Shown: positions 1,240 to 52,259 of the stretch, in pieces
How positions within the stretch are numbered: position 1 is the stretch's first letter
How the letters are laid out: the number at the start of each line of letters is the position of its first letter
Position numbers and translations under genes: made by a program
Assembly: GCF_963921235.1 (NCBI RefSeq)
Contig: NC_086097.1
Span: 103,170,001-103,234,000 of the forward strand
DNA length: 64,000 nucleotides
From: Mobula hypostoma
Taxonomy: Eukaryota
Reading direction: 5' to 3'
Notes under the pieces: generated by a model
What the model saw: only the letters and a program-made list of their open reading frames with translations
Told to the model about the DNA's origin: nothing
The model's database searches: none

Positions 1240-4200
1240 ATCACAAGACAAAGGAGCAGAAGTAGGCCATTCAGCCCATCGAGTCTGCTCCGCAGCTCCT
1301 CCATGAGCTAAACTATTCACCCACCTAGTTCCAATTTCCGGCTTTTCCCCCATATCCCTTGATACCCTGATTAATTAGATACCTGTCAATCTCCTCCTTA
1401 AACACCCTCAATGATCGGGCCTCCACAGCTGTATGTGGCAACGAATTCCACAAATCCACGACCCTCTGGCTAAAAAAATTTCTCCTCATCTCTGTTTTAA
1501 CTGGGTACCCTCTAATTCTAAGACTATGGCCTCTTGTCCTGGACTCACCCACCAAGAGAAACAACCTTTCCACATCTACTCTGTCCAACCCTTTCAACAT
1601 TCAAAACGTTTCTATGAGATCCCCTCTCATTCTTCTATACTCTAATGAATACAATCCAAGAGTCGACAGACGCTCCTCATATGTTAGCCCCTGCATTCCA
1701 GGAATTATCCTTGTAAATCTTCTCTGAACTCTCTCCAACATCAGTATATCGTTTCTAAGATAGGGGGTTCAAAACTGCACACAGTATTCCAAATGAGGTC
1801 TCACTAATGCCCCATAGAGCCTCATTAACACCTCCTTACTCTTATACACTATTCCTCTTGAAATGAATGCCAACATAGCACTCGCTTTCCTTACCGCTAA
1901 TCTAACTTGGTGGTTAACCTTTAGGGTATCCTGCACCAAGTCCCTTTGCACTTCTGATTTTTGAATTTTCTCCCCATCTAAATAATAATCTGCCTGATTA
2001 TTTCTTCTTCTGAAATGTACAACCGTACATTTGTCAACGTTGTATCTCATCTGCCATTTCTTTGTCCACTCTCCTAAACTGACTAAGTCTCTCTGCAACC
2101 TTTCCGTTTCTTCAACATTTCTGGCTCCTCCACCTATCTTGGTGTCATCTGCAAACTTGGCCACAAAACCATTTAATCCATAATCCAAATCATTGATATA
2201 CATCGTAAAAAGAAGCGGCCCCAACACCGACCCCTGCGGAACAACACTAGTAACCGGCAACCAATCAGAATAGGATCCCTTTATTCCCACCCTTTGCTTT
2301 CTGCCTATCAGCCAATGCTCCACCCATTTCAATATCTTTCCTGTAATTCCATGGGCTCTCATCTTATTAAGCAGCCTCATATGCGGCACCTTATCGAAGG
2401 CCTTTTGAAAATCCAAATACACAACATCCACAGCTTCTCCCTTGTCAATCTTATTCGAGATTACCTCAAAAAATTCCAATAAGTTGGTAAGGCAGGATCT
2501 TCCCTTCATGAAACCATGCTGGCTTCGGCCTATCTTGTCATGCACCTGGAGGTATTTCATAACCTCGTCCTTGAGGATTGACTGCAATATCTTTACAACC
2601 ACCGATGTCAGACTAATAGGTCTGTAATTTTCTTTTTGCTGCCTCCTTCCTTTCTTAAATAGCGGAACTACATATGCGACCTTCCAGTCCTCCGGAACCA
2701 TGCCAGAGTCTATTGATTCCTGGAAGATCATTTCCAATGCTTCCACAATCTCCAAAACCACCTCCTTCAGAACCCTTGGGTGCACCTCATCCGGGCTGGG
2801 AGACTTATCTATTCTTAGTCCACTTAGCTTCCCAAGCACTTTCTCTCTAGTTATCTTGACTGCACCTAATTCTATTCCCTGATACCTCTGGCTATCAGGT
2901 ATATTTCTCATGTCTTCCACTGTGAAGACTGATGCAAAATATTCATTCAGTTCCTCTGCCATCTCTTTGTTATCCATTATAATTACTCCAGCATCATTTT
3001 CAATCGGTCCCATATCTACCCTTGTCACTCTTTTACTCTTGATATATTTTAAAAAACTCTTAGTATCCTTTTTTATGTTAATCGCCAACTTCCTTTCATA
3101 ATTCATCTTTCCTTTCCTAATGACTGTCTTAGTTTCTTTCTGTAAATTTTTAAAGGTCTTCCAGTCCTCATTTTTCCCACTAATTTTTGCTTCCTTGTAC
3201 GCCGTTTCTTTTGCTTTTATTTTTGCCTTAACCTCTCTCGTTAGCCACATTTGTGCCATTTTTCCAATCATGATTTTCTTTTTTCTTGGAATATATTTTT
3301 CCTGCATTTTCTTTATTTCTTGTAGGAATTTCATCCAATTCTGCTCTGCCGTCCCTCCATTTAGTTTACTTTTCCAATTGACTTGGGCCAGTTCCTCTCT
3401 CATACCACTGTAATTTCCCCTGTTCCACTGAAATATCGATACACCTGATACCAGCTTCTCCCTCTCAAATTTGAGACTGAACTCAATCATATTATGATCA
3501 CTACTTCCAAGAGGTTCCTTTACCTCCAGCTCCCTAATCGCCTCAGATTCGTTACACAACACCCAATCCAAAACAGCCGGTCTCCTGCATGGGCTTCTGG
3601 ACAAGTTGCTCCAAAAAGCCATCCTATAGGCATTCTACAAACGCCCTCTCCTGAGATCCATTACTTTCCCGACTTTGCCAATCCACTTTCATATTAAAAT
3701 CCCCCATAATTATCTTGACATTGTCCTTCTGACACGCTTTTTCTATTTCCAGCTTCAACTTGTAGTCCACATCCCGACTGCTGTTTGGAGGCCTGTATAT
3801 AGCTGCTATTAGTGTCTTTTTACCCTTGCCATTTCTTAATTCTACCCATAAGGATTCTACCTCTTCTAATCCTATGTCCCTTCTTTCTATTGATTTGATA
3901 TCGTTACTTACCATCAGGGCCATGCCACCCCCTTTATCTACCTTCCTATCCTTCCTGTACACTGTATCCTGGGATATTCAGCTCCCAATCACATCCATCA
4001 TTTAGCCATGACTCGGTGATGGCCACAATGTCATACCTTTTAACCTGCAGCTGTGCAGCAAGGTCATCCACTTTATTTCTATGCTGCGTGCATTTAAGTA
4101 CTGTACATTTAGATCGGTACCTGTTGCCACTTGTGCTATATTTCTATTTTGCAGCAAATTATCCTGTATATTCACCGGCCTGTCCTCCTTACCATCTTTG

Positions 4201-5321
4201 CTGCACAGTGTTTTTGACTTATTTCTATTTTCCTCTTCCTCGATCCTAACACCTTGGTTTCCTTCCCCTTGCCAACTTAGTTTAAACCCTCCCTAACAGC
4301 TATATTAAACAATCCCGCTAGGATATTAGTACCTTTTGAGTTCAGGTGTAATCCATCTTTTTTGTACAAGTCATACCTTCCCCAAAATAGATCCCAATGA
4401 TTCAAGAATTTGAAACCCTGCCCCCTGCACCAGTTACTTAGCCGCACATTCATCCGCTTAATTTTGCTATTCTTACCATCATTAGCATGCAGCTCAGGCA
4501 GCAATCCTGATATTATTACTCTGGAGGTCCGGCTTTTCAATTTTCTTCCTAGGTCCCAGTAATCTTTCTTCAGGACCTCCTCTCTTTTTCTGTCTATGTC
4601 ATTAGTACCAACATGTACCAAGACTTCCAGCTGCTTGCCCTCTCCTCTCAGAATACTCTGGACTCGATCTGAGACATCCCGTACCTTGGCACCAGGGAGG
4701 CAACACACCATCTGGGTATCCTTGTCCGTCCCCCTTACGATGGAGTCCCCTATAACTACTGCATTTCTTCTTGCTCTCTTGATTTTGGCACTGGGCAGAA
4801 TGCTAGAGTCTTGTTTACTGTGGTCCTCCTCTGTCAGGTCTGCCTCTTCAACAGAATCCAAAACGATATATCGATTTCTGAGGGGGACTGTCACAGGGGT
4901 GCTATCCACTACCTCTCTATAGGTAGTATCTATCACCTCCTCACTTTCCCTAATTAGCCGAAGGTCATCTATTTCCATCTCCAGCACCTTAACACGGTCC
5001 TTCAGAAGCCTCATCTCAGTGCACCTGGTGCAGATGTAATCCTTGGGGAGGCTGGGAGTCTCCCAGGGTCCCCACATCTGGCACTCCAAGCACAACACTA
5101 ATCCTAGATGCATACCTCTAATGCTACTGTTTGTACCAAATACCAAAAAACTGTAACTTACTCCGTTACTATGAGACTCAATGGTTGCAGGAAGCCTCTT
5201 CCCGTCTCCGCCGAAGCCCGTTGAGCCAAAGCCCTTTCACTCTGCACCCTCTCACTCCGCAGCCTGCTCCGACGCTGCCCGCTGGATATGGCGGTTTACT
5301 GCCCGCTGGATATGGCCGTTT
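1240..5321 (-). mobile_element. Near full-length CR1 LINE with ORF1 and disrupted ORF2
   Basis: ORF1 4277-5146 has a Cys motif (CLEC..CTRC) and SGNH esterase motifs (GDS, HVGTND, DGLHL). ORF2 pieces at 3624-3962, 1769-3622 and 1325-1600 show endonuclease (YRPP, MGDFN, SDH), RT (YLDFQKAFDKV, PQGSVLGP, FADD) and the CR1 C-terminus (FFSQRVV..WNSLP). Confidence 0.95.
4277..5146 (-). CDS. CR1 ORF1 protein (zinc finger/coiled coil plus SGNH esterase), open but probably with internal deletions
   Basis: ORF track 289 aa with motifs VVIGDSIVRG, LPGA, HVGTND, DGLHLN. Confidence 0.7.
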   Translation of the reverse strand: MVFGTNSSIRGMHLGLVLCLECQMWGPWETPSLPKDYICTRCTEMRLLKDRVKVLEMEIDDLRLIRESEEVIDTTYREVVDSTPVTVPLRNRYIVLDSVEEADLTEEDHSKQDSSILPSAKIKRARRNAVVIGDSIVRGTDKDTQMVCCLPGAKVRDVSDRVQSILRGEGKQLEVLVHVGTNDIDRKREEVLKKDYWDLGRKLKSRTSRVIISGLLPELHANDGKNSKIKRMNVRLSNWCRGQGFKFLNHWDLFWGRYDLYKKDGLHLNSKGTNILAGLFNIAVREGLN

Positions 5322-7144: not shown

Positions 7145-10100
7145 AATCAGCAGCAGGAGCAGGCCACAGCGACGAGGTTTCTTGCAGGTCAGCGACGCTC
7201 GTTTAAGAGTGCAGCAGGGACAAGCGGGGTGGCCATTGTCGGGAGTAGGCCAGTGCTGAGAGTAGGAGTGTCAGGCTTTGGCTCAAAAGAGATGTTGGCA
7301 TGGGTAAGTTTCTATTAAGGTTTCCTTTTCTTTTTTTCTCTCTTACTGTACCTGGTATAGTAGATGGCCATTGTGTGTTCTTCATGCCAGATGTTGAACT
7401 CCTGGGAAATCTGCAGTCTTCCAGGGAACTACATCTGCATGGTGCATAGGTCTGTAGTGCAGAAAGGAAAGAGGGAGAAGAGGGGAGCGGTAGTGATAGG
7501 AGACTCAATAGTCGGGAACAGACAGGAAATTCTGTGGATATGAACAGGACACCCAGATGGTATGTTGCCTCCCAGGTACCAAGGTCAGACACGTCTTGGA
7601 TCGCATCCACAGCATTTTAGAGAAGGAGGGAGAGCAGCCAGATGTCTTAGTACATTTGGTACCAGTGACACATGAAGGTAAAATAAGGAGGTCCTGAAGA
7701 GAGAATTTAGAGAGCCAGGCAGAAAGCTGAGAAGCAGGAGCTCCAGGATTCTGGATTGCTGACTGTGAGGGTAGAAACAGGATGATTTAGCAGATGAGTG
7801 CCGGGCTGAGAAGCTGGTGCAAGGGGTAGGGCTTCAGATTCTTGGATCAGTGGGATCTCTTCTGGGGGAGATATGACCTCTACAAAAGGGATAGGTTGCA
7901 CCTGAACCAGATGGGGACCAATATTCTTGCTGGCAGGTTTGTTGGAGCTGTTGAGGGTTTAAAGTAATTTGGTAGTGGGGTGGGACCCGGAGTGAAGGGT
8001 TTCAGGATAGGAAGGGAGGTAAAAAAGCAAAGATAGCATGCAGTCAGACTGTCAAGTGGGCAGGCAGATGATAGGACAAAATTGCAACCAGCAGAGTGAG
8101 TATCAGTGCATTAGGGATGCAGAATCAAAAAGGGTAGCAAATACAATACTCAAAGTGTTATATCCCAATGCACGGACTACAAGAAGAAAGGTGGATGATC
8201 TTGCTGCACTGCTACAAATTGTCAGATATAATGTTGTGGTCAAGACTGAATTGTGGCTGAAGGATGGTTGTAGTTGGGAACTGACACCCAAGGTTACACG
8301 TTATATTGGAGGGATAGGAATGTAGGCAGAGGGGGTGGCGTGGCTCTGCTTGTAAAGAATGGCATCAAATCAGTAGGAAGATGTGACATAGGATCAGAAA
8401 ACGTTGAATCCTTGTGGATTGAGTTAAGAAACTGCAAGGTAAAAGGACCCTGATGGCAGTTATATACAGGCCTCCCAACAGTAGCTGGGATGTGGACCAC
8501 AGATTACAACAGAAAATAGAAAAGGCGTGTCAAAAGGGCAATGTTATGATAGTCATGAGAGATTTCAGCATGCAGGTCGATTGGGAAAATCAGGTTAGTA
8601 ATGGATCCCAAGAGAGTGACTTTGTTGAATGCTTCTGAGAGACAGTGATCACAATGTGATTGAGTTCAACTTGAAATTTGATAGGGAGAAAGTAAAGTCT
8701 GAGGTAACAGTATTTCAATGGAGTAAAGGAAATTACAGTGGTATAAGAGAAGAATTGGCCAAAGTAAATTAGAGGGAGATGCTGGCAGGGATGACAGCGG
8801 AGTAGCAATGGCATGAGTTTCTGGGGAAAATGAGGAAGGTGCATGAGATAGATGTGTTCTAAAACCAAAGAAATACTCAAATAGAAAAATAATATAATGG
8901 TGGCTGACAAAGGGAAGTCAAAGTTAATGTAAGAGCAAAAGAGGGAGCATACAACAAAGGAAAAAATAGTGGGAAGATAGTGGATTTGGAAGCTTTTAAA
9001 AATCTAAACTAAAAGAATCATTAGGAGGGAAAAAAAGAAATATGAAAGCAAGCTAGCAAACAATATCAAAGTGGATAGTAAAAGCTTTTTCAAGTATGTA
9101 GTAAAAAAAAAGGGAAGCGAGTGTGGGTATCAGACTGCTAGAAAATAAGGCCGGAGAAAAAATATTGGGGGACAAGGAGATGGCAAATGAACTAAATGAG
9201 AATTTTGCATCAGCCTTCACTATGGAATACACTAGCAGTATGCCAGATGTTGAAGGGTGTGAAGGAAGAGAAGTGAGTGCAGTTACTATTACGTGGGAGA
9301 AGGTATTCAAAAAGTTGAAAGACCTGAGGGTACCTAAGTCACTCGGACCAGATGAACTGCACTCTAGGGGTCTGAAAGAGGTAGCGGTAAAGATTGTGGT
9401 GGGATTAGTAATGATCTTTCAAAAATCTTTAGACTCTGGCATGGTGCCAGAGGACTGGAAAATTGCAAATGTCACTCCACTCTTTAAGAAAGGAGGAAGG
9501 CAGCAGTAAGGAAATTATAGACTAGTTAGCCTGACCTCAGTGGTTAGGAAGATGTTGGAGTCAATTGTTAAGGAGGAGGTTATGGAGTACTTGGTGACAT
9601 AGCACAAGATAGGATAAAGTCAGCATGCTTTCCTTAAGGGAAAATCTTGCCTGACAAACCTGTTGGAATTCTTTGAGGAGGTTGCAATTAGGATAGGTAA
9701 AGGGGATGCAGTGGATGCTATATATTTAGACTTTCAGAAGGCCTTTGATAAAGTGCCACACATAAGCATGCTTACCAAGTTAAGGGCCCATGGTATTACA
9801 GGAAATGTACAGACATGGTTAGAGCATAGGCTGATTGGTAGGAGGCAGCAAGTGGGAATAAAAGGATCCTTTTCTGGTTGACTGCCGGTAACTAGTGGTG
9901 TTCCACAGGGGTCAGTGTTGGAACCGCTTCTCTTTATACTGTATGTCAATGATTTAGATGATGGAATAGATGGCTTTGTTGCCAAGTTTGCAGATGACAT
10001 GAAGCTTGGTGAAGGAGCAGGTAGTGTTGAGGAAACAGGAAGGCTGCAGATGGACTTAGAGAGATTAAGAGCATGGGCAAGGAAGTGGCTAATGAAATGC

Positions 10101-10900
10101 ACTTTGGGAGTAGAAATAAATGTGCAGACTATTTTCTAAATGGGGAGAAAATCCAAAGATCTGAGATGCAAATGGACTTGGGAGTCCTTGTGCAGAACAC
10201 CCTAAAGGTTAACTTGTAGGTTGAGTCGGTGGTGAGGAAGGCAAATGCAATGTTAGCATTCATTTCAAGAGGTCTAGAATACAAGAGCAGAGATGTGATA
10301 TTGAGGTTTTATAAGGCATTGATGATGCCTCACCTTGAGTATTGTGAACAGTTTTGGGCTCCTCATCCAAGAAAAGATGTGCTGGCATTGGAGAGGGTCC
10401 AGAGGAAGTTCACAAGGGTGATCCTGGGAATGAAAGAGTTATCATACGAGGAATGTTTGATAGGTCTGGGTCTGTACTCATTGGAATTTAGAAGAATGGG
10501 GGTGGGGAGGGATCTCATTGAAACCTTTTGAATGATGAAAGGCCTAGACAAAGTAGATGTGGAAAGGATGTTTCCCATGGTGGGGGGAGTCCAGGACAAG
10601 AGGACACAGCTTCAGGATAGAGAGGAGTCCATTTAAAACAGAACTGCGGAGGAATTTCTTTATCCAGAGGGTGGTGAATTTGTGGAATTTGTTACCATAG
10701 GCAACTGCAGAGGCCAGGTTGTTGGGTGTATTTAAGGCAGAGATTGATAGATCTTGATTGGACACTGCTTCAAATGTTACGGGGAGAAGGCTGGGGAGTG
10801 GGGCTGAGGAGGGGAAGAAAGGATCAGCCTGATTGAATGTTGGAGCAGATTCGATGGGCCAAATGGCCTAATTCTGCTTCTATGTCTCATGGTCTTGTGG
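7145..10900 (+). mobile_element. Decayed near full-length CR1 LINE
   Basis: Esterase ORF1 remnants at about 7480-7960; ORF2 fragments YRPP, YLDFQKAFDKV, FADD, PHLEYC; CR1 3' UTR and tail ending near 10900. Many stops and deletions. Confidence 0.9.
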
Positions 10901-11744
10901 TAAGCAATGGGTGGCTCAGCAAATACAAAATAAAACAACCTTAGAATTTTATAGCATGATCCAAGGATAGTCCGCCCAGAACAATAATGTGTGTTGATGA
11001 AGTCCATTCCCCTGAACAGATCTTCACGGCTCCTGTTTTAACTGCCTCCCAGGTCCATAATCCAGACATTTCATTCTCTCTTTTATTTCTCATCTTTACT
11101 TCCTTGCTTGTTTACACTCTCTTACTGTTTCCTTTCTCCTTACAAATAACCTTTCTTTGTCTGATCCTTGTAAAGTCTTTGTACTTACTCCACAAGGCTT
11201 TTCTTGCCTTTAAAAGAAAATGGAAAAAGATTGAATTCTTTATTGAAAGAATAGTTTAATAAATTAGTGTTTCATGACAACCTGACCTGAATAACAAATT
11301 CAGTCCCCAGTGTACTAATTAAATAAATGAACTATATGATAAAAATGAAATTTGACATTGTTACCATAAATGGCCTGACAAATGGAAGCAGGTTATCTGT
11401 TGGTGCATTCACCCCTCACAAGTTGTGCCACTGTTTTCCAGAACAACAGTGACTCTTTGGCACAGCCTGCAGTTCTGGTGTATATCCCATGACATCCTTT
11501 TAGCATCTTGTCCTTTATTCTCGTGAATAATTGCAAAAGAAAGCTGCGATCAGAGTAAGAATAAAGTGGAATAATTAATTTCTGTGGATGATATTAGATT
11601 TTTCTTGCTCCAATTATTATCAAATAAAAATAATTCTTCTCGTCAATAAAAGGTTTTCTTTTGTTTTAACTGGAGATTTCCATGAACATAGTGAACATTA
11701 GTTGGAATTGGTTTGTTATTCTCACAGGTACCAGGAAACAGTAA

Positions 11745-14539
11745 GAATCAAAGTTCAAAGTAAATTTGTTATCAAAGTTCATATGTCACCTTATACAACC
11801 CTGAGATTCATTTTCTTGTGGATATCCTTAATAAATCCATAATAGAATAATAACCATAATAGAATCAATGAAGGACCACACCACTGGGTGTTGAACTAGT
11901 TTGCAAAAAAACAACAAACTGTACAAATACAAGGAAATAACTAACTATTAAGAACATGAAGGTGAGTCCATAGGTTATGGGAACATTTCAATGATAGTGC
12001 AAATTAAGTTGACTGAAGTTATCCTCTTTGGTTGAGGGGTAATAACTATTCCTGAACCTGGTGCTTTGAGTCCTGAGCCCCCATACCATTTTACTGATGG
12101 CAGCAGTGAGAAGAGAGCATGATCTCAGTGGCGAGGGTCCCTGATGTTGGTTTTGCTTTCCTGCAACATCACTCAGTATGGATGTGCTCAGTGGGGGGAG
12201 GGCTTCACCCATGATGGACTGGGCTGTATCCACTACTTTTCGTAAGAATTTCCTTTCAGGGGCATTGGCATTTCTCATACCAAGCCATGATGTAGCCAAT
12301 CAATTCGCTCTCCACCACACATCTATAGAAACTGGTCAAAGTTTTAGATGTCATTCTGAATCTTTGCAAATTCCTAAGTAAGGGTGCTTTCTTCATAATT
12401 GCACTCGTGAGCTGGGCTCAGATTAGGTCCTCTGAAATATAACACCAAGGAATTTAAAGTTGCTGACCCTCTCCAGTTCTGATCATCTACTGAGGACTGG
12501 CTCATAAATCTCTGGTTTCCTCCTCCTGAAGTCAAATATCAGCACTTTGGTCTTGCTGACATGAGTAAGATGTTGTTGTTGTGGCACCACTCAGCCAGAG
12601 TTTCAATCTCCCTCCTATATGATAATTTGTCACCACCTTTGATTTGGCTTACAACAGTGCTGTCGTTGGCAAACTTGAAAAAGGCATTGAAGTTGTACTT
12701 AGCTACACAGTCATAAATGTAAAGTGAGTTGAGCAAGGGGTGTACCTGTGGTTCACCTGTGCTGATGGAAATTGTGGAGGAGATGTTGTTGCCAATCCGA
12801 ACTGACAAGGGTCCAAAAGGTAGGAAATCTAGGATCCAATTGCACAAAGAAGTATTGAGGCCACGGTCTTGAAGCTCTTTGATTAATTTTAAGGAGAATG
12901 ATGGTATTGAATGTCAAGCTGCAGTTGATAAAGAGCATCCTGATGTATGAACCTTTGCTGTTCAGATTACCAGAATTGAGTGAAGAGCCAATGAGGTGTC
13001 ATCAGCTGTGGACCTGTTGCTCTATTAGGCAAATTGGAGCGGAGCGGATCCAAGTCATTTCTCAGGCAGGAGTTGATGTGTTTCATCACCAACCTCTCAA
13101 AACCCTTGATCACTGTAGATGTAAGTGCTACTGGATGATGGTCACTAAAGCCTTTGTTCTTTGGCACTAGTATAAGTGAAGCCTGAGTTGGGTATCTCTG
13201 ACTGCTGAAGTGAGAGGCTAAAGATCTCAGTGAATACTCCACCCACATGATCTTTAGTTCTTGGCCAGGTACCCCATATGGTCCAGATGCGCTTTGTGGG
13301 TTCGCCCTCCCGAAGGTTGCTCACACATTGGCCTCAGAGACTGAAATCATAGGATCATCAGGGGCTGTGGGAGTTTGCAGTGGTTCCTCCATGTTTTGAC
13401 AGTCAAAGTGATTATAGAAGACATTGAGCTCAACTGGAAGCGAAGCCCTGATGTCACCTCTGTCGCTTGATTTTACTTTATAAGAGGTAATAATAGTAAA
13501 GCCCTGCTACATCTGTAGAGCATCCTTCATTGGTTTAAGTTTAATCCAGAATTGCCACTTCACCTGTGAAATGGCTTTTCAGATATTGTACCTGAACCAC
13601 TTGTAACTTTTATGATCAGCAGACTTGAATGTCTCTGATTTGGCCCTCAGCAGACTGCAGGTCTCGTGTTTCATCCAGGGCTTCTCATTGGGGAAGACTT
13701 TGAATGATTTTGTGGGGACACACTTGTCTAGAAATGTTTTTATATAGTCTGTGACAGCTATGGTGCATTGACTTGAGGCAATTCCGTAACTGCACCTTTG
13801 CGTCCTGCAACCACCTTTTTGTTATCCTAATCTCTGGGGCCTTGCTGTTTAGCCTCTGCCTGTATGCAATTAGGAGAAGGACAGCCAAGTGATCAGATTT
13901 CCCGAAATGCAAGCTGGGCACGGAATGGTAGGCATTCCTTGTGTCAGTATAACAGTGTTGGGACCTCGGGTGCTACAGCTTGTATGCTGATGATAATTGG
14001 GCAGAAATTTCTTCAGTTAAGCCTGGTTGAAGTCCCTGACTATCATTTGAAAAGTTTAGTCCATCCTTCAGGTTATTTGCTGTATCTAGTGTACTGAGAG
14101 TAAGCCATGTCTCAATAAATAAGCTCACAACAATCTTTCATTTTCCTGTGATACAGCAGTGTGCACCAGGGTCCTCAAATTTTGTTCTCTAGCGACTGCA
14201 CACTTGCCAACAAGATGCTGGGTAGAGAGGCTCTCATTCCTTTGTGATTCAGCCTGGCATGGAGTCTCTTCTCCACCCCCCCCCCCACTCACCTCTCTTC
14301 TGGTTGTGGTGCTAAACTTTCCTTCACTTAAAGTTGATGTACCTGCTAGCTTGAGAGTTAGGTCTGCTAAGTCCTTTAGAAGATCATGAAATCTATAGTT
14401 CATTAAGTCAACTTAAAAGTACATTGCTTAAAGGGAAATTACATGCTGCAAATTGCAGTGAGAGTAATTCAACAAAAGTATATTTGCAAGTGTTGTACGT
14501 AGCCCACAGAACGTTGCCATGGGTCGTTGGTGCCATCTT
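11745..14539 (-). mobile_element. Decayed near full-length Rex1/Babar LINE
   Basis: FGKSDH endonuclease motif, [21 protein letters not shown]. The 5' end begins AAGATGGC (gccatctt at 14532-14539). Confidence 0.85.
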
Positions 14540-14559
14540 GCCTCAAAATCTTAGTTTCA

Positions 14560-15226
14560 CAAGTCATTTATACTAATTATTTCAAAACATAAGTGCATTG
14601 AGGTAGTACAAGGAAAAGCACTGGCAGAATGTTGGATATAATGTTACAGTTACAGAGAAAGTGTCGTGCAGGTAGACAAGGTACAAAGGCCATAATAGCA
14701 TAAATTCTGAGAGTTCATCTTTAACATACAAGAGGTCTGTTTTAGAGCCTTATTACAGAGGAACAGAAGCTGTCCTTGTGCCTTGTGTGTTTTTACAAAC
14801 TTTTGTACCTTCTGCCCCATTCAAAGGGGAGAAAAGAGGTGGGGTTTTTGATTGTGCTGGTTGCTTTTCCAAGGCAGCAAGAAGTGTAAACAGTCTATGA
14901 AGGAGAGGTTGGTATTTGTGATATACTGAAAACTCTGCAATTTCTTGCAGTCATTGGAAGAGCAGTTGCCATTACCAAGCTGTGATGCATCGGATAGGAT
15001 GCTTTCAATGGTGGATCTTTAAAAAATTGGTGAGGGTCAATGGGGATATGCTGAATTTCATTAGCCATATGAGCAAGTAAAGGCACTGGTGTGCTTTTTT
15101 GGCCATAGTGTCTACATGGTTGAACCAGGGCAAACTATTGGTGATGTTTATGCCTTGGAGCTTGAAGGTCTCAATATCTCCAGCTCAACACCATCGATAT
15201 AGACAAAAGTGATTAATCTACCCCCT
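14560..15226 (-). mobile_element. Decayed Rex1/L2-like LINE 3' part, host of the Academ insertion; continues at about 19562-19740
   Basis: Resembles other Rex1 3' regions in the window. Resumes after the Academ with tcctgaagtcaat (IDFR on the minus strand). Confidence 0.6.
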
Positions 15227-15362
15227 TAGTCCTTGAGCCAGGACCCCAAATTTGGGCCACCGGTACCATCTGGGGGGAAATAATTCTTAGTAGTGATTTT
15301 TGGCAATGTATACACCCCTAGTGCTAGAAAATATGTGAAGGCATTGTGTTGGTGGTAGCTTT

Positions 15363-18300
15363 CTGTGAGGGAGGACTGGGAGTTGCACCTCCATGCTACA
15401 AGAACCATGATCCCATGGTGCTATGCCTATGATAACATGAATTATGCCAGGTACCTATCCTCTTACTTTGCTCAGATGATGAACCTCCCAGAGAAGAATC
15501 CTTCTGTGTATGAGGCCTTTAAGACAGGCCAATTCTCAGTGCAGCTGTCAAGTAACAATCCCTTTGGGCAGATCCCTCTGGACCAGGCTATTGAAGCCAC
15601 AGTGAACAAAGACACTCGGACTCCTGGAGGCACATCACGGTTCAGCCTGAATGCTGGAGCTATCAAGCGTTACTACATTACAGCTGAGCACCGCAGTGGA
15701 TTCCTAGGACAGTTGAGATGGTGCAAGACAACAAATCAGAGCTTTGTCATGCGGAGCTACAGCAGCCAAGAATCCAGAAACTTAAGGAAGCAGTTTCAGC
15801 AGTGGTTAGCCTCGTACATGAATGGGTCAACCCATTTGCAGAGAAGAGGGACCTCATTAGCATCTCTACGGCAAAGTCAGCCCCCAAGGACATTGCCTCT
15901 GACCTGATGAAGGCATATGAAATTGGTGAGCAATGCTATGCAACCTTCAAGGATGAGAGACTAGAGGAAGATCCACCAGCAAAGAAATTCCATGACCCAA
16001 TGAAAACCAAAAAGCTGAAAACATTCAGTGATACGTGTAAGAAGAGAGCAGTGAAATCAAATAGGAGGGTGATCATCTTAAAAGCAGACAGGTCTTTGTT
16101 TGGACGCATCATAGTGATGGCACAAGGGCGCAGTCTACGTATGGAGGATATCCTTTCTCATCCCCTTGGACCATTGCCCTGGGCCCTGTCCACACCAGAA
16201 GAATTGTTGAGAAAGACAAATAAAGCTACTTTAGCCACAACCTTGCAGAAAAATGTAGTAGTAGAAGAGCATCTCCCAGGAAACTCTGCTACAGTGGTTG
16301 ATGGAATGAACTTGGTCCAAAGAGTGAAAGGTGATTAAGTTACTTTCAGAGATGTTGCCACAACAATTCTGGGTATTGCTCTGAGGGAAGGCAGTCAGAG
16401 TAGCAGAATAGATGTTGTGTTCAACGCAAAAAAGGAGACCTCTATCAAGAACAGTGAAAGATCTCTATGGGGTGAAGAGACTGGTCATGAGTTACAAGGT
16501 ATCACAGGCACACAGACGGTGAGGCAGTGGAGGAGCTTCCTAACCAAAGTCAGTAAGAAAAATAGTCTCATTAGCTTTATAGTCCACGAATGGAGGAAGG
16601 CGGAGTACAGAGCAAAGCTACAGGAGAAGATTCTGTGTGCAACTGTGAAGGGCAAATCTTACAGAATCACACCTCAAGACAGTGAGGAGGTGTCAGCTCT
16701 TCAGTGTCAACAAGAAGAAGCAGATGGCTGCCTACTTCGCCATGCTGCCCATGCCACAAGAGAGGGATACCAATCTGTAGTGATCTGCTCAGAAGACACA
16801 GATGTCTTTATCATGTCTTTAGCATTTTGTGACAAGATTGAGGCCCCACTGTTCCAGAAGTGTGGCACTAGAACCCATTCAAGGCTTGTAGACATCAGGA
16901 AGGTTGCTGCCACTGTTGGCATAGAGGTTTGTAGGGCTCTCATCGGGTTGCACGCATATACAGGATGTGACACTGTGAGCACTTTTGTGGGCAAAGGGAA
17001 GACAAGTGCTCTAAAACTTCTGGACAGCAATAGGGAAACTCAGGACACATTCTTAGAGTTGGGTCAGGAATGGGACCTCTCCCCAGAACTGATGGACAAA
17101 CTGGAGGCATTTACATGTCCCAAAAACATCGACCACCATGGTCAATGAGCTCAGGTATCACCTTTTCTGTGCCAAAAAAGGTGAAATTGAAAGTCATCAA
17201 CTCACACCATGCTAGGACTGCTTAACAAAACATGCACAGCGAGCCAACTACCAGGCTGGTATATGGAAAAGATGTTTGGAGAATAGACAATAAACAATAG
17301 GTGCAGGAGTAGGCCATTCAGCCCTTCGAGCCAGCACCGCCATTCACTGTGATCATGGCTGATCATCCACAATCAGTATCCAGTTCCTGCCTTATCCCCA
17401 TAACCTTTGATTCCACGATCTTTAAGAGCTCTATCCATCTCTTTCTTGAAAGCATCCAGAGACTTGGCCTCCACAGCCTTCTGGGGCAGAGCATTCCATA
17501 TATCCACCACTCTCTGGGTGAAAAAGTTTTTCCTCAACTCCGTTCTAAATGGCCTACCCCTTATTTTTAAACTGTGGCCTCTGGTTCTGGACTCACCCAT
17601 CAGCGGGAACATGCTTCCTGCCTTCAGCGTGTCCAATCCCTTAATAATCGTATATGTTTCAGTAAGATCCCCTCTCATCCTTCTAAATTCCAGAGTATAC
17701 AAGCCCAGTCTCTCCAATCTTTCGACATATGACAGTCCCGCCATCCCGGGAATTAACCTTGTGAACCTACGCTGCACTCCCTCAATAGCAAGAATGTCCT
17801 TCCTCAAATTTGGAGACCAAAACTGCACACAGTACTCCAGATGTGGTCTCATCAGGGCCCTGTACAGCTGCAGAAGGACCTCTTTGCTCTTATACTCAAT
17901 TCCCCTTGTTATGAAGGCCAGCATGCCATTAGCTTTCTTCACTGCCTGCTGTACTTGCATGCTTGCTTTCAGTGGCTGATGTTCAAGAACACCTAGATCT
18001 CGTTGTGCTTCCCCTTTTCCTAACTTGACTCCATTTAGATAATAATCTGCCTTTCCGTTCTTGCCACCAAAGTGGATAACCTCACATTTATCCACATTAA
18101 ACTGCATCTGCCATGCATCTGCCCACTCACCCAGCCTGTCCAAGTCACCCTGTATTCTCATAGCATCCTCCGCACATTTCACACTGCCACCCAGCTTTGT
18201 GTCATTGGCAAATTTGCTAATGTTACTTTTAATTCCCTCATCTAAATCATTAATATATATTGTAAATAGCTGCAGTCCCAGTCCCAACCCTGCAGTACCC

Positions 18301-19065
18301 CACTGGTCACTGCCTGCCATTCCGAAAGGGACCCATTGATTGCTACTCTTTGTTTTCTGTCAGCCATCCAATTTTCAATCCATGTCAGTACTCTGCTCCC
18401 AATACCATGTGGCCTAATTTTGCCCACTAATCTCCTATGTGGGACTTTATCAAAGGCTTTCTGAAAGTCCAGGTACACTACATCCACTGGCTCTCCCTTG
18501 TCCATTTTCATAGTTACATCCTTAAAAAATTCCAGAAGATTAGTCGAGCACGATTTCCCCTTCGTAAATCCATGCTGACTCAGACCAATCCTGTTACTGC
18601 TATCCAGATGTGTTGTAATTTCATCTTTTATAATTGACTCCAGCATCTTTCCCACCACAGACGTCAGGCTAACTGGTCTATAATTCCCTGTTTTCTCTCT
18701 TCTTCCCTTCTTGAAGTGAGGGACAGCATTAGCCACCCTCCAATCCACAGGAACTGATCCTGAATCTATAGAACATTGGAAAATGATTACCAATGTGTCC
18801 ATGATTTCTAAAGCCACCTCCTTAAGTACCCTGGGATGATGGAAGGGCCCACAAGTGCCAAGCCCTGTTGGCAGAGGATGGAAGATGGAGAGAGAAGAGG
18901 AAGTTGAACAGTTGATGGTGCACTGGATGGAAGGCCAGCCAGCACCCGATGCTGTCCTGGATTTACTGGCCTGTAACTGTCCAAAAAAATGTTCACTCCC
19001 AAGATGTATGTGTGTTGCAGAATAGCCTCAGGTGTACTGACATGTGTAGACTGGCAGACTGTGAG
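15363..19065 (+). pseudogene. Academ transposase-XPG-Cys8 polyprotein pseudogene (N-terminus missing)
   Basis: Motifs NYARY, DQAIEATVNK, VVDGM, QEEADG, SEDTDV, HAYTGCDTVSTFVGKGK, VNELRY, HAQRANYQAGIW; after the CR1 insert, PSPVGRGW and CNCxxxCxxxxCxC..CTDMCxxxxC (18972-19062). Frameshifts near 15717, 17118 and 19020; stops at 16336 and about 17213. Confidence 0.85.
17284..18840 (-). mobile_element. 5'-truncated CR1 LINE inserted into the Academ ORF
   Basis: RT and C-terminal ORFs at 17373-18320 and 18242-18817; tail (tagacaataaacaatag) at 17284. Academ coding sequence rejoins in frame across it (CLE-K-GPQVPSP). Confidence 0.93.
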
Positions 19066-19871
19066 GACCAGGCATCCACCTCAGAGAGTGACTTGGAAAA
19101 TTATTATGGTTACTAGGTTATGAAAGTATGGAAAACAAAGTATGCAAAGCAGTCTTTGATTAAATATATTAATTTTACAACCAAATGGAGCCTAGGTTAT
19201 GGCTGTGTGGAACCCCGCATTTGAATTATTGTACTGTAATTCTATATGCTATGACAAAAGCTTAAGATTGTTTTGATTTGATACAACAATATGGAAAATA
19301 TTATGACATTGATAAAACTCCAGAAATCTCTCCAAATGAGGTTTTTTACCTTTTGGGGGGTGGGGTGACATCTTCTGCTGTACTGATGTTAATATGGAAT
19401 ATATACAAAAAGTGATTATTTATTTGAAGTGATAAAGCTACCACTGGTGCAATGCTATCACATGTTTTCTAACTCCAGAGATGTATACCTTGCCAAAAAT
19501 CACTATGAACATTATTCCCCTCAGATGGTACCGACCAACCCTACTGGCTTACGGACTACCTGTCCTGAAGTCAATGGCTGGCTCTTTTCCTTTGCTGACT
19601 TTCAAGGAAAGGTTGTTGTCCTGACACCATGCCATTTGATTCTCATCTCCTTCCTCTACAAAGTCACGTCATTATTTGAAATTTGACGTACTGTGGTGGT
19701 GTCAATTGTGAACTTGTAAAAGAAGTCAGAGCAGAATATGTTGCAGTAATAACTTCTTTAGCAAGAAAAATTTTATGAAAATAGTTCAGAATATTGCATA
19801 TAATGTAATTGGAGTTGTTGCTCCTGTACTTGGATATATACTTGTTTGTTCCATAAAAGATGTAAAACTGC

Positions 19872-21007
19872 AACTATAACCATATAACAATTACAGCACG
19901 GAAACAGGCCATCTCGGCCCTTCTAGTCCATGCCGAACGCTCACCTAGACCCATCTACCTGCACTCAGCCCATAACCCTCCATTCCTTTCCTGTCCATAT
20001 CCCTATCCAATTTTTTTTAAAATGACAAAATCGAACCTGCCTCTACCACTTCTACTGGAAGCTCGTTCCACACAGCCACCACTCTCTGAGTAAAGAAGCT
20101 CCCCCTCGTGTTACCCCTAAACTTTTGCCCCTTAACTCTCAACTCATGTCCTCTTGTTTGAATCTCCCCTACTCTCAATGGAAAAAGCCTATCCACGTCA
20201 ACTCTATCTATCCCCCTCATAATTTTAAATACCTCCATCAAGTCCCCCCTCAACCTTCTACGCTCCAAAGAATAAAGATCTAACTTGTTCAACCTTTCTC
20301 TGTAACTTAAATGCTGAAACCCAGGTAACATTCCAGTAAAACTCCTCTGTACTCTCTCTATTTTGTTGACATCTTTTCTATAATTCGGTGACCAGAACTG
20401 TACACAATACTCCAAAATTGGCCTGAGCAATGCCTTGTACAATTTTAACATTACATCCCAACTCCTATACTCAGTGCTCTGATTTATAAAGGCCAGCATA
20501 CCAAAAGCTTTCTTTACCACCCTATCCACATGAGATTCCACCTTCAGGGAACAATGCACCATTATTCCTAGATCCCTCTGTTCTACTGCATTCCTCAGTG
20601 CCCTACCATTTACCATGTATGTCCTATTTTGATTAGTCCTACCAAAATGTAGCACCTCACACTTATCAGCATTAAACTCCATCTGCTATCTTTCAGCCCA
20701 CTCTTCTAACTGGCCCAAATCTCTCTGCAAGCTTTGAACACCTACTTCATTATCAACAATGCCACCTATCTTAGTATCATCTGCATACTTACTAAACCAA
20801 TCTACCACCCCATCATCCAGATCATTAATATATATGACAAACAACATTGGACCCAGTACAGATCCCTGGGGCACACCACTAGTCACCGACCTCCAACCTG
20901 ACAAACAATTATCCACCACTACTCTCTGGCATCTCCCATCCAGCCATTGTTGAATCCATTTTACTACTTCAATATTAATACCTAACGATTGAACCTTCCT
21001 AACTAAC
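19872..21007 (-). mobile_element. 5'-truncated CR1 LINE
   Basis: ORFs at 20017-20682 and 20686-20919 (GVPQGSVLGP, YADD, RPILEYC); aaccatat-type tail. Confidence 0.92.
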
Positions 21008-24000
21008 CATAGAAACTACAGCACAGAAACAGGCCCTTTGGCCCTTCTTGGCTGTGCCGAACCATTTTCTGCCCAGTCCCACTGACCTGCACACGGACCA
21101 TATCCCTCCATACACCTCCCATCCATGTATCTGTCCAATTTATTCTTAAATGTTAAAAAAGAACCCGCATTTACCACCTCGTCTGGCAGCTCATTCCATA
21201 CTCCCACCACTCTCTGTGTGAAGAAGCCCCCCCCTAATGTTCCCTTTAAACTTTTCCCCCCTCACCCTTAACCCATGTCCTCTGGTTTTTTTCTCCCCTT
21301 GCCTCAGTGGAAAAAGCCTGCTTGCATTCACTCTATCTATACCCATCATAATTTTATATACCTCTATCAAATCTCCCCTCATTCTTCTACGCTCCAGGGA
21401 ATAAAGTCCTAACCTATTCAACCTTTCTCTGTAACTGAGTTTCTCAAGTCCCGGCAACATCCTTGTAAACCTTTTCTGCACTCTTTCAACCTTATTTATA
21501 TCCTTCCTATAATTTGGTGACCAAAACTGAACACAATACTCCAGATTCGGCCTCACCAAAGCCTTATACAACCTCATCATAACATTCCAGCTCTTATACT
21601 CAATACTTTGATTAATAAAGGCCAATGTACCAAAAGCTCTCTTTACGACCCTATCTACCTGTGACGACACTTTTAGGGAATTTTGTATCTGTATTCCCAG
21701 ATCCCTCTGTTCCACTGCACTCCTCAGTGCCTTACCATTAACCCTGTATGTTCTACGTTGGTTTGTCTTTTCAACTTGCAATACCTCACAGTACTAAACT
21801 CCATCTGCCATTTTTCAGCCCATTTTTCCAGCTGGTCCAAGTCCCTCTGCAGGCTCTGAAAACCTTCCTCACTGTCTACTACACCTCCAATCTTTGTATC
21901 ATCAGCAAACTTGCTGATCCAATTTACCACATTATCATCCAGATCATTGATATAGATGACAAATAACAATGGACCTAGCACTGATCCCTGTGGCACACCA
22001 CTAGTCACAGGACTAGTGTAACCTTCCGTGTGGAACCTTGTCAGAGGCCTTACTGAAGTCCATATAGACAACATCCACTGCTTTATCCTCGTCAACTTTC
22101 TTAGTAACCTCATCAAAAAATTCAATAAGATTTGTCAAACATAATCTTCCATGTTGACTGTTCCTAATCAGACCCTGTCTATCCAGATAATTATATATAC
22201 CATCTGTAAGAATACTTACCATCAATTAACCCACCACTGACGTCAAACTTACTTTGCTAGGTTTACTCTTAGATCCCATTTTAAACAATGGAACAACATG
22301 AGCAATACGCCAATCCTCTGGCACCAATCTTGTTTCTAATGACATTTGAAATATTTCTGTCCAAGCCCCTGCTATTTCTACATTAACTTCCCTCAAGGTC
22401 CTAGGGAATATCCTATTAGGACCCGGAGACTTATCCACTTTTATATTCCTTATAAGCGCCAGTACTTCCTCTTCTATAATCATCATAGTTTCCATAACTA
22501 CCCTACTTGTTTCCCTTACCTTACACAATTCAATACCCTTCTTCTTAGTGAATACTGAAGAAAAGAAATTGTTCGAAATCTCCCCCATCTCTTTTGGCTC
22601 CACACATAGCTGTCCACTCTGATTCTCTAAGGGACCAATTTTATCCCTCACTATCCTTTTGCTATTAGTATAACTGTAGAAATGCTTTGGATTTATTTTC
22701 ACCTTACTTGCCAAAGCAACCTTATGTCTTCTTTTAGCTTTCCTAATCTCTTTCTTAAGATTCTTTTTACATTCTTTATATTCCTTGAGCACCTCATTTA
22801 CTCCATGCTTCCTATATTTATTGTAGATCTCTTTCTTTTTCTGAACTAAGTTTCCAATATCTCTTGAAAACCATGGCTCTCTCAAACTTTTAACCTTTCC
22901 TTTCAACCTAACAGGAACATAAAGATTCCGTACCCTCAAAATTTCACCTTTAAATGACCTCCATTTCTCTATTACATCCTTCCCATAAAACAAATTGTTG
23001 CAATCCACTCCTTCTAAATCCTTTTGCATCTCCTCAAAGTTAGCCTTTCTCCAATCAAAAATCTCAACCCTGGGTCCAGGCCTATCCTTCTCCATAATTA
23101 TATTGAAACTTATGGCATTGTGATCACTGGACCCGAAGTGCTCCCCAACACATACCTCCGTCACCTGACCTATCTCATTCCCTAACAGAAGATCCAACAC
23201 TGCCCCTTCTCTAGTTGGTACCTCTATGTATTGCTGCAAAAAACTATCCTGCACACATTTTACAAACTTCAAACCATCCAGCCCTTTTACAGATTGGGCT
23301 TCCCAGTCTATGTGTGGAAAATTAAAATCTCCCACAATTACAACTTGTGCTTACTACAAATATCCGCTATCTCCTTACAAATTTGCTCCTCCAATTCTCG
23401 CTCCCCATTAGGTGGTCTATAATATATCCCTATAAGCGTTACTACACCTTTCCCATTCCTCAATTCCACCCAAATAGCCTCCCTAGACGAGCTCTTTAAT
23501 CTATCCTGCCAAAGCACCGCTGTAATGTTTTCCTCTGACAAGCAATGCAACACCTCCCCCTCTTGCCCCTCCGATTCTATCACACCTGAAGCTGAAATCC
23601 AGGAATATTTAGTTGCCAATCACACCCCTCCTGCAACCATGTTTCACTAATAGCTACAACATCATATTTCCAGGTATCAATCCATGCTCTAAGCTGATCC
23701 ACCTTTCTTACAATGCTCCTAGCATTAAAATAGATGCATTTAAGAAACTCTCCACCTCTTACTTTCTGTTTATCCCTAATGGTGCAAACAACTTTATTAT
23801 CTTTTTCTTCCTTCTCCCCTACATCTTCGGTCTGAGCACTCCCCTTCTCTGTCACCTGCCTATCCTCCCTCACACACTGTCTACTAGCTTTCTGTATTTG
23901 TGAACTAACCTCCTCTCTCCTAGTCTCTTCAATTTAATTCCCCCCCCCAACCATTCTAGTTTAAAGTCTCCCCAGTAGCCTTCGCAAATCTCCCCAAAAG

Positions 24001-27595: not shown

Positions 27596-27808
<213 letters not shown>

Positions 27809-32844: not shown

Positions 32845-33665
32845 TCTGCAGAAATTATCTGATGACTCGGCAATAGTTGGGTGAATAAAGGGAGGACATG
32901 AGGATAAATACAGGGCCCTGGTGGAGGACTTTGTCAGGTGGTGCAAGCGGAATCATCTACAGCTTAACATCAGTAAGGCAAAGAAGGTGGTAATGGATTT
33001 TAGGAAGTCTAAGCTTGCACTGTTTCCTGTTACTATTGATGGTGAGGACTTGGAGGTGGTGAGGACCTACAAGTACCTGGGGGTATACCTGGATGACAGA
33101 GGCTATGTACAAGAAGGGCCAGAGTCACCTCTACTTCCTGAGGAGACTGAGGCACTTTGGAGTATGCAGGCCTCCCCTTCACATGTCCTACCAGTCTGTT
33201 GTCACCAGTACAATCTTCTTTGTGGTGGTGTGCTGGGGCAATGGCATCAACATGGGTGATGCCAACAGGCTTAGTAAACTGATTAGAAAGGATGGCTGTG
33301 TTATAGGAGTCAAACTGGACATGCTGGAGACTGATAGAACAAAGGACCCTATGGAAAATCCTGGCAATTCTGGACAGAGTTTCTCACCCTCTGTATGCCA
33401 CCTTGGCTGAACAGAGGAGCACTTTCAGTAATTGACTAATACAACTGCGCTGCTCCAAAGAGCGCTATTTGAGGTCATTCTTACCCTCGGCCATTAGGCT
33501 CTATAATGAGTCAACCTATAGCCAGGGAACTGATGACCCCCCCCTGTTAGACTGAGGTAACTTATCTTTTATTCTTTCTTACTTTTAATATTTGTATATT
33601 TGTGCATTTGTAATGCTACTGTGACACTGTAATTTCGTTTGGGATCAATAAAGTATTTATGTATC
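32845..33665 (+). mobile_element. Rex1/Babar 3' fragment
   Basis: WCKRNHLQLNISK, YKYLGV, LYFLRRLR; 3' aataaa tail. A related minus copy lies at about 40170-40668. Confidence 0.85.
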
Positions 33666-36359: not shown

Positions 36360-36833
<474 letters not shown>

Positions 36834-42433: not shown

Positions 42434-43505
42434 TGTCATAAGGAGGTGGCTGGGAACGGACCCAAGTGAAAGACACAGACACTGAAGTACTAGGGACAAG
42501 ACTAGGATACAGGGTGAGGGTTAGGACTTGGACACAAAAACCAGGAACCTGGAATAGGACTGGACAAGAGAGCTAGGAGCCCGGGTTTGGACTCCGAGAC
42601 AGGACAAGGACCCTGGGTCTTGCCTCTGGCTCGGACCCCAGAACTAGGCAAGGACATGACTTGGCTGGCAGGCAGGACGAGGCTGGAGTCTTCAGACTTG
42701 GGGCGAGGCTGGAGGCTGGAGACTTGAGGCTTGAGGTCTTGAAGCTTGGCTTGGGGCGAGGCTTGAGGTCTTGAAGCTCGGCTTGGGGCGAGGCTCGAGG
42801 CTTGGGGTCTTGAAGCTCCTCCTGGGCAGGGCGCGGATCTCCACCCAACGGAGGCAAGAGACAGGAAGGGACAGAACCAACCGCAGGTAACGGCAAGACG
42901 GCCTGGCTTACCCAGCGGAGGCAAGGGATAGGAAGGGACAGAACCAACCGTAAGTAACGGCAAGAGGGCCTGGCTTACCCGACAGAGGCAAGGGACAGGA
43001 AGGGGCAGAACCAATCGCAGGGTAACGGCAAGTCGGCCTGACTTACCTGGTGGAGGTAAGGGACAGGAAGGGAGCTAGGTACAGGGTGGCTCCAAGACAA
43101 GACTTTAGGCGAGAAGAGGCGAGAGTTACCAGCAAGACAAGGCAAGGCTTCAGGCAATGCAAGGCGAGACAAGAACTTCAGGCAAGGCGAGAGTTACCGG
43201 CAAGACAAGGCAAGGCTTCAGGCAATGCAAGGCAAGACAAGAACTTCAGGCGAGGTGAGAGTTACAGGCAAGGCAAGGCGAGGAAACAGAAGGCAGGGGA
43301 AGGGATACAAGGAGTAAGGACAAGAAAAATCCAGCAGCTACGCCCTGGTCTCTGGAGGTATTTATGCAGCCAGTGCCAATGAGAATCAGCTGCCTCAATT
43401 AGTGCTCAACAGGAACAGAAACAGGATAGACAGGAAAACCTAGAGCAAGGGTCGATGGACTGGACTGTGAACCGGAATGTGGACTTCACAGACCGGACCA
43501 TGTCA
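42434..43505. mobile_element. Solo LTR (1072 bp) with internal tandem repeats
   Basis: TGTCAT...ATGTCA termini. CTATT at 42429-42433 and 43506-43510 (5-bp TSD). GC-rich internal arrays. Confidence 0.85.
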
Positions 43506-49769: not shown

Positions 49770-50589
49770 TTCAATATGCCAGAACTGCTTTTGGTTGATT
49801 GAAGAAAAAATTCAAAGCACATTTATTATTAAAGAATGTTTAAGTTATACACCTTGAAACTTGTCTGCTTACAGACAGTTACAAAACAAGAAACCTGAAA
49901 AACCCAATTTAAAAAAGACTAAAAACCACAGCGCAAAGAAAGAGAGAGGGTTTAAAAAAAACTTACCATGCAAGCGAACAGCATCCTGAACCAGACTGAG
50001 TCCCAGATCTGCTCCTGGAGCGGCTGGAGTAGGCTCAAGCCAATGCTCGGTCCCCAGTTCATCACATCAGCGGGGCCGAAATGCACAGCAGCCAGATCAG
50101 TTCACAGCCTTGGCACTGCGGAGAAAGGAATAAACATTCACGGGAGATCGAGCAAAATCAGCCCAAGCCGAGCCTCCATTCCCGACACTCAGGCTTTCCA
50201 GTGTATCTGGAGAGTATTTGAATATTAAGACCTCAAATCTTGCACAGAGCATGTGGCCTACGAGACGGGAGAGATCCCTGCTCTCTGCTGTTCTCCATGG
50301 ACAGGGATTACCTGCAGCAGTTATCTAAGGTCATCGGAAAAAATGTCACCCAAGCATCTTGCAAAAATCCTCCATCTTCACTGGGACATGCAAAGGTTAG
50401 CAGCCTCTTGCAAGGCCCTATGTGCACTCTAGTTCCCAGTGTTGGTCAGAGCATGTTGTTCACAGGGCTAACACCAAACTCCTGAAGTAGATATCCTCTT
50501 CCAAGGTCTGACAAAAGAATAGGTTACTGAACAGAAAGCAGAAGACTCAAAAATGTGTGCAAAATTTCTTTGTTGAAATACAACATTCC

Positions 50590-52108: not shown

Positions 52109-52224
52109 CTGTCGACTCGCGGCTCGGGGGCGCCCAGACCCTGTCGACTCGCGGCTCGGGAGCGCCCGGACCCTGTCGACTCGCGGCTCGGGAGCGCCCG
52201 GACCCTGTCGACTTGCGGCTCGGG
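52109..52224. repeat. 32-bp minisatellite, about 3.6 copies
   Basis: Unit CTGTCGACTCGCGGCTCGGGAGCGCCCGGACC starting at 52109, 52141, 52173 and 52205. Confidence 0.95.
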
Positions 52225-52259
52225 ACCACCTGAAGTGATCGATTGGAGCCTCTCCGCAC

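Follow-up and report, generated by a model that had tools for sequence, protein, structure and literature searches.

DNA transposons of the Academ superfamily and its AcademX lineage, reportedly described by Kapitonov and Jurka in 2010 and by Kojima in 2020, have TAG..CTA ends and a C-terminal eight-cysteine (Cys8) finger. Internally deleted, non-autonomous elements are known for other DNA transposons, among them Ds from Ac and KP from P. Here we describe an element at positions 15227–19558 of a 64,000-nucleotide (nt) stretch of the Mobula hypostoma genome (contig NC_086097.1, 103,170,001 to 103,234,000, forward strand; hereafter the window, whose numbering is used throughout). The element is a genuine Academ transposon copy, and very probably belongs, as a dead copy, to a non-autonomous family within AcademX that occurs in mobulid-type rays and derives from an internally deleted and amplified short form. 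Like AcademX elements, it has a 3-base pair (bp) target-site duplication (TSD), a fused nuclease and, in its full-length relatives, a DDE-type transposase; it differs from them in its length of 2.77 kb when a later insert is discounted, in the loss of the N-terminal half of the protein with two of three DDE candidates, and in that the nuclease-only deleted form is the one amplified in the rays examined here. According to an excerpt of PMC10045372, TSDs measure 3–4 bp in AcademX and 9–10 bp in AcademH, a difference tied to the possession of a nuclease or a helicase; AcademH and AcademHP belong to the same superfamily as this element, but have a helicase and 9–10-bp TSDs, in contrast to the nuclease and 3-bp TSD found here.

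The element opens with TAG at 15227 and closes with CTA at 19558, CCT lies on both sides (15224–15226 and 19559–19561), and the imperfect terminal inverted repeats (TIRs; 136 nt on the left, 125 nt on the right) align with a score of 123, whereas none of 300 shuffles scored above 30. A 3-bp flank match is weak evidence by itself (1 in 64). Excision of the element together with one CCT makes a minus-strand long interspersed nuclear element (LINE) frame continuous, and the TSD can be set at exactly 3 bp because the restored frame has the same DFR-x10-IDG spacing as another LINE copy at 32885–33256. The element measures 2,771 bp without a later LINE insert, and no second TIR copy was found within the 64-kb window. 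Among the relatives (80 loci retained of 129 confirmed), termini were studied in the 13 loci with both ends placed; 12 of these end in TAG..CTA (L010 ends in CTG), and their TIRs are 70–85% identical to those of the window copy. Exact 3-bp TSDs flank seven of the 13, two of which have common flanks, leaving six independent sites, and none has a TSD of 4–10 bp. Full-length relatives have homologous TIRs and span 5.3–6.4 kb, similar to the mean of 5,565 bp given for bivalve Academ elements in an excerpt of PMC10294476. No helicase family was detected at E ≤ 1 in a full-length relative of 1,569 residues, and no Academ-named entries occur among the protein matches listed. The predicted fold, the Cys8 cluster and the TSDs of the relatives mark the element as AcademX-like; it is a non-autonomous member of this known superfamily. 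At one relative locus (L025:5431-7853), a 438-bp inverted repeat of 98% identity surrounds a rearranged fragment of Academ that has additional copies of the TIR.

The window copy contains the EEAD, DTD and GCD..GKGK motifs of FEN1/XPG-type nucleases, followed by eight cysteines (18972–19062) that are near-invariant across the aligned relatives; the family profile of this Cys8 region matches the LIN54 CXC domain (E = 0.003). Seven acidic positions of the nuclease are invariant in 22 full-length relatives, and the window copy retains six of them, position 16423 encoding N where the family protein described below (P0493) has D. A structural model of the nuclease region of a full-length relative, L002 (predicted local distance difference test (pLDDT) 95; predicted template modelling score 0.92), best matches EXO1 (Z 14.9, root mean square deviation (rmsd) 3.6, 263 residues aligned) and also XRN1, T5 exonuclease, GEN1, XPG and FEN1. 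Of 48,161 chains, 17 reach Z ≥ 8, every one of them from the 5′-nuclease superfamily, and Foldseek agrees. The model resembles human EXO1, FEN1, XPG and GEN1 (PDB 5uzv, 6tnz, 6tus and 5t9j) in fold (Z 11.5–14.9) and in the seven invariant acidic positions, whereas sequence identity is 10–13% and the Academ nuclease is fused to a transposase. It also differs from EXO1/FEN1-type nucleases in that no further helix follows the short gateway-like one (residues 114–133 are coil or loop); a basic SIK..ER..R stretch aligned, with a very weak score, with EXO1 residues 75–99. Pfam returned no family below E = 0.01 for the coding pieces of the element, 5_3_exonuc_N scoring E = 0.13. The models place a FEN1/EXO1/XPG-family nuclease C-terminal to the transposase in this lineage. 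The earlier note on this stretch, made from the sequence alone, had named these termini and the CCT TSD, the acidic motifs and cysteine cluster, and membership of the XPG lineage of Academ; all of these hold.

By contrast, the transposase that the earlier note considered reconstructable is largely missing. When the nuclease segment was used as a query, 49 of 1,570 candidates were recovered as related proteins, and many of these have 1,480–1,593 residues. The window copy covers only residues 827–1569 of the 1,569-residue protein P0001 (82–85% identity in four main segments), and the N-terminal half of P0001 has no tblastn match anywhere in the window. Three DDE candidates, D477, D644 and E900 (P0001 numbering), are invariant or near-invariant in alignments of 22 and 78 relatives; the window copy keeps the third alone (the Glu at 15593), in a transposase remnant 82% identical to the homologous region of a full-length relative, and D477 and D644 are absent along with about 820 N-terminal residues. 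The element therefore has neither the complete DDE triad nor the N-terminal region of an autonomous copy. In comparisons with L002, L034 and L005, TIR homology ends at 15361 and coding homology begins at 15358, an overlap of 4 nt across which about 3.4 kb of L002 is skipped, and the half protein arose through a 3.4-kb deletion at this microhomology. Retained ends, an internal deletion at microhomology and amplification in trans are features of Ds and KP as well; KP, however, keeps the N-terminal DNA-binding part, whereas the element here keeps the C-terminal nuclease half in an open family frame. Two relatives, L018:4840-7598 (2,759 bp) and L075:4635-7904 (3,270 bp), are likewise internally deleted Academ elements with 3-bp TSDs and a retained nuclease half, a content towards which the nuclease query biases the sample.

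The transposase region of L002 (L002:3898-5505) was modelled with a pLDDT of 91, and its best structural match is the Drosophila P-element transposase (PDB 6p5a; Z 10.9, rmsd 4.5, 288 residues aligned), followed by Hermes (Z 7.8) and then by integrases, ISCth4 and Tn5. Sequence identity to the P-element transposase is 9%, the model is helix-rich with a Z score only moderately above background, and the corresponding domain is mostly deleted from the window copy. An RNase H-fold DDE transposase is thus predicted in the full-length relatives, and the window retains its C-terminal remnant. The Academ transposase has an invariant His in a GxFH motif after the second Asp. P, hAT and MULE transposases carry a C/DxxH motif at the corresponding place. 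We found no literature in which the DDE domain of the Academ transposase is combined with AlphaFold.

The deletion is not a private feature of the window copy. Between 21% and 34% of the words of the element are held by 20 of the 24 listed sequencing runs (8 studies; 7 organisms plus skin metagenomes), and depth along the element was examined in four runs, one from each of organisms X1, X3, X8 and X21. The depth in X1, X3 and X8 is uniform from one end of the element to the other, the first bin included, and contigs from all three cross the deletion junction. The X8 contig crossing 15372 has a depth of 91.6, compared with 85–105 in the element body; X3 contigs can be said to cross the same point because 2,824 of the depth of 2,884 there carries one common 1-nt difference. 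An X8 contig spanning 15973 to 18947 omits the LINE insert, and family contigs are free of the frameshifts of the window copy and of its stop at 17213 (the stop at 16336 is not among the 40 of 251 differences listed, and P0493 is open at that site). P0493 is an uninterrupted 737-residue protein on a 2,712-nt contig that begins at the junction, and is 92.5% identical to the window copy over 468 residues. It is the 2.77-kb deleted form that makes up the amplified family. Depths summed over the element in X1 are 9,000–22,000, compared with 11–13 for two junction contigs identical to the window, which suggests hundreds to about a thousand copies, although summed contig depths do not equal copy numbers. 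An X3 contig carries the last 27 nt of the right TIR and 340 nt of flank with 5 differences, a span below the 31-letter bridging rule, and this second organism probably has the same insertion.

About 720 codons are recoverable from the window copy in five segments, close to the figure of about 700 in the earlier note. Its three frameshifts (near 15714, 17114 and 19020) and two in-frame stops (16336 and 17213) are present, together with a further 1-nt frameshift at 15372, adjoining the deletion junction, and a 5′-truncated LINE, presumably a CR1, with a reverse transcriptase domain (RVT_1, E = 2e-17) that fills 17284–18841 between duplicated GAA. The 32 listed copy-private coding changes (of about 80, since 40 of the 251 differences were listed) comprise 11 synonymous and 21 non-synonymous changes, are spread 9/11/12 over the codon positions, and at 16 of the 21 non-synonymous sites the family letter encodes the P0001 residue; these counts point to neutral decay of the window copy, and the frameshifts, stops and LINE insertion are part of this private decay. 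Compared with the dominant X8 contigs, the copy shows 75 differences in about 1,999 nt (3.8%), and the window differs from the flank in the second organism by 1.4%. Given that sharks evolve slowly, as stated in an excerpt of PMC10587355, we estimate its age at some tens of millions of years. With the rate that the same excerpt gives for the epaulette shark, 7e-10 per generation, about 5e7 generations would result; this is implausibly old, and the figure was used only to conclude that the insertion is not recent. The earlier note had read the few disablements as a sign of recent activity; this is unsupported, because a distance of 3.8% separates the copy from the family contigs, the lineage evolves slowly and the insertion is probably shared with a second organism.

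These results fit the following history. The ancestor was of an autonomous type, which exists among the relatives at about 5.3–6.3 kb, with TAG..CTA TIRs and a single protein of about 1,560 residues comprising an N-terminal region, the DDE transposase, the 5′ nuclease and Cys8. A deletion of about 3.4 kb at the 4-nt microhomology fused the left TIR to about codon 823, yielding a 2.77-kb product with both TIRs, an open nuclease–Cys8 frame of about 737 codons and one of the three DDE candidates. This short form was amplified, presumably through a full-length partner that acted on its TIRs in trans, and the family frame would be open solely because it preserves the state of the master copy when the burst took place. 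The window copy inserted into an old LINE upstream of a TTBK2 exon with a 3-bp TSD, decayed neutrally and received the CR1. In the autonomous enzyme, the DDE domain would nick and join the 3′ ends with a 3-bp stagger, and we give an even chance to a role of the fused 5′ nuclease, whose activity is predicted only, in trimming the non-transferred strand or a 5′ flap at the element ends; resection of donor ends and repair of the insertion gap are alternative roles.

Several observations weigh against this account. Six of the 13 relatives with both ends placed have no 3-bp TSD, and a Foldseek search with the transposase model gave no match at E ≤ 0.001. P0001 is the nearest full-length protein, with 88% identity to P0493, and a full-length ray partner was neither found nor excluded. 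The partial sample behind the neutrality count and the gap between summed depth and copy number, both given above, belong here too.

Protein distance and patchy presence make a horizontal entry of an ancestor of the family into the ray lineage likely. A protein of Leuciscus chuanchicus, of the carp family, matches P0493 at 84.7% identity over 404 residues (77–78% for three other matches), a hagfish protein at 77% and a sea anemone protein at 70%. P0493 is also 79% identical over 727 residues to P0004, whose 90% cluster includes snow-crab proteins; the crab label rests on this cluster membership, as the snow-crab proteins P0055 and P0056 fail to align to the retained half. Two proteins from JGI and ENA (P0494 and P0398) are about 94% identical to the ray family protein, and their hosts are possibly the nearest transfer partners. 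Among 58 sequences, the window copy falls together with P0001 and Leuciscus (support 0.98). Synonymous divergence (dS) from 22 relative loci is 0.54–1.18 for eight, 1.5–1.9 for seven and saturated for seven, with a non-synonymous divergence (dN) of 0.15–0.19 for the closest; these are DNA-level relatives other than the Leuciscus, crab and hagfish elements, and the criterion of synonymous divergence (Ks) for transfer in an excerpt of PMC7070016, which asks for an element Ks under 99.5% of the orthologue values, needs named hosts. The same excerpt describes purifying selection between families and neutrality within them for transferred DNA transposons, a pattern that the selection between families and neutrality within the family seem to fit here. 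In 1,523 million letters from X21, a more distant organism, no read falls on the element; X21 reads do match the CR1 at 85–95%. Viral contigs yielded 6 pattern matches and no relatives, so no viral vector was seen among them. Of the superfamilies that an excerpt of PMC12400950 names, Academ is transferred at the highest rate per copy, and its horizontal transfer was reported by Zhang et al. 2016, judging from a reference title in PMC5791352. Transfer in rays would therefore not be unusual and the surprise modest. We found no literature on horizontal transfer of Academ in sharks.

The alternative, vertical inheritance since the common ancestor of rays, teleosts and hagfish with many losses, is distinctly less probable, but has points in its favour. 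Ray, Leuciscus and Myxine lie within one clade (ultrafast bootstrap 97; 16-sequence tree), and vertical descent likewise predicts that named vertebrate sequences cluster together; fossils of Academ in amniotes are mentioned in an excerpt of PMC9004415; and the absence evidence comes from a single run of one organism, X21. It is harder to reconcile with the identity of 78–85% to Leuciscus and of 79% over 727 residues to the cluster that includes snow crab, when stingray TTBK2 is 52–56% identical to five bony-vertebrate orthologues (a weak benchmark of one gene), with a dS of 0.54–1.06 and a dN of 0.15–0.19 to the closest relative loci, or with the absence of element reads in X21. The transfer proposed in the earlier note is plausible, though not proven, on protein distance and patchy presence, and its argument from few disablements falls away.

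It is improbable that the nuclease–Cys8 protein of the short form was produced and worked in trans on the full-length element, as a helper or dominant-negative repressor, or that the host co-opted it. The family protein is uninterrupted with all nuclease motifs and eight cysteines, an in-frame ATG lies at 15408, about 180 nt from the left end, and the internally deleted L018 and L075 likewise retain the nuclease half. However, an open frame is expected of a consensus-like contig even if selection is absent, the deletion has removed the native 5′ region, which in L002 takes up about 1 kb ahead of the ATG, the window copy decays neutrally, and the content of L018 and L075 is an ascertainment effect of the nuclease query; moreover, a DNA-directed search showed no RNA run with the element and there was no named ray protein among the matches listed (49 and 120). 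Equally slim is the chance of the larger scenario in which a horizontally acquired AcademX became a ray nuclease-only element of hundreds to about a thousand copies, with its 737-codon open reading frame (ORF) expressed and acting in trans on an autonomous partner; were it true, the transposase and nuclease halves would have been separated in nature, and what the Academ nuclease does could be tested in a vertebrate. It is very improbable that the window copy represents a recently active and essentially complete Academ from which a transposase–XPG–Cys8 ORF could be rebuilt, for although both TIRs and the TSD are intact and about 720 codons are 82–85% identical to a full-length relative, the N-terminal residues with D477 and D644 are gone and the family contigs differ from the copy by 3.8%.

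With the deleted elements, ray genomes gain an abundant non-autonomous AcademX family that is probably undescribed: we found no description of one in the literature, the chondrichthyan papers listed included, although supplements may list one. The family also offers a candidate chain of transfer among rays, teleosts and invertebrates. The fused 5′ nuclease would best be tested in intact full-length relatives (P0001; L002, with a 1,571-codon ORF and both TIRs) rather than in the window copy. L002:1469-7687, on a metagenome contig, is an apparently intact AcademX of 6,219 bp whose assembled ends have no TSD.

Features of the element and of its surroundings in the 64-kb window.
Feature	Position	Strand	Basis
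Older LINE, left part, interrupted by the element (outer limit approximate)	14900..15226	-	
Left TSD, CCT	15224..15226	.	
Left TIR, 136 nt, begins TAG	15227..15362	+	70-81% identity to TIRs of relatives
4-nt microhomology at deletion junction, TIR inner end joined to about codon 823	15358..15361	+	Comparison with L002, L034 and L005
C-terminal DDE transposase remnant (end of helical insertion domain and last helix); Glu at 15593	15374..15712	+	
Linker and predicted FEN1/EXO1/XPG-family 5′ nuclease	15715..17283	+	
Acidic sites of the nuclease	16300, 16423 (reads N), 16717, 16723, 16795, 16801, 16969	+	
5′-truncated LINE (presumed CR1) inside this copy	17284..18841	-	RVT_1 match; family contigs skip 17281-18841
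ORF end with Cys8 (CXC-like) cluster 18972-19062, frameshift 19020, stop 19114	18842..19116	+	
Right TIR, 125 nt, ends CTA	19434..19558	-	
Right TSD, CCT	19559..19561	.	
Older LINE, right part, interrupted by the element (outer limit approximate)	19562..19700	-	
TTBK2 internal exon, AG..GT borders, first host exon downstream of the element	27596..27808	+	
Next TTBK2 exon, internal	36378..36821	+	Limits from tblastn

The earlier note placed the element in an intron of TTBK2. The gene itself stands: tblastn with two ray TTBK2 proteins found two exons, and only two, within the window, and the one at 36378–36821 is 98% identical to a TTBK2-like sequence of Mobula birostris, 94% to Hemitrygon and 69–74% to sharks (a search of the exon in Atlas gave no usable match). 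Scans for kinase motifs of upstream TTBK2 exons found none in the window. The intronic position is less direct, as both exons are internal and the preceding exon would lie outside the window. The introns of TTBK2 are very long and filled with transposable elements, because only two exons were detected in 64 kb; after 36821, 27 kb follows without a detected TTBK2 exon. Exonisation of the element into TTBK2, which has the same orientation, was considered and rejected, the frame being broken and no sign of it seen.

Other repeats are present elsewhere in the window. A long minus-strand CR1-like element at 1328–5236 has a 621-codon open stretch of ORF2 (1772–3634) and remnants of ORF1, and two GC-rich, minisatellite-like arrays in which several frames are open lie at 42505–43379 and 52016–52727. 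At 48050–49810, two near-identical Penelope-like GIY-YIG fragments are arranged head to head around 48990 and form a large inverted repeat.

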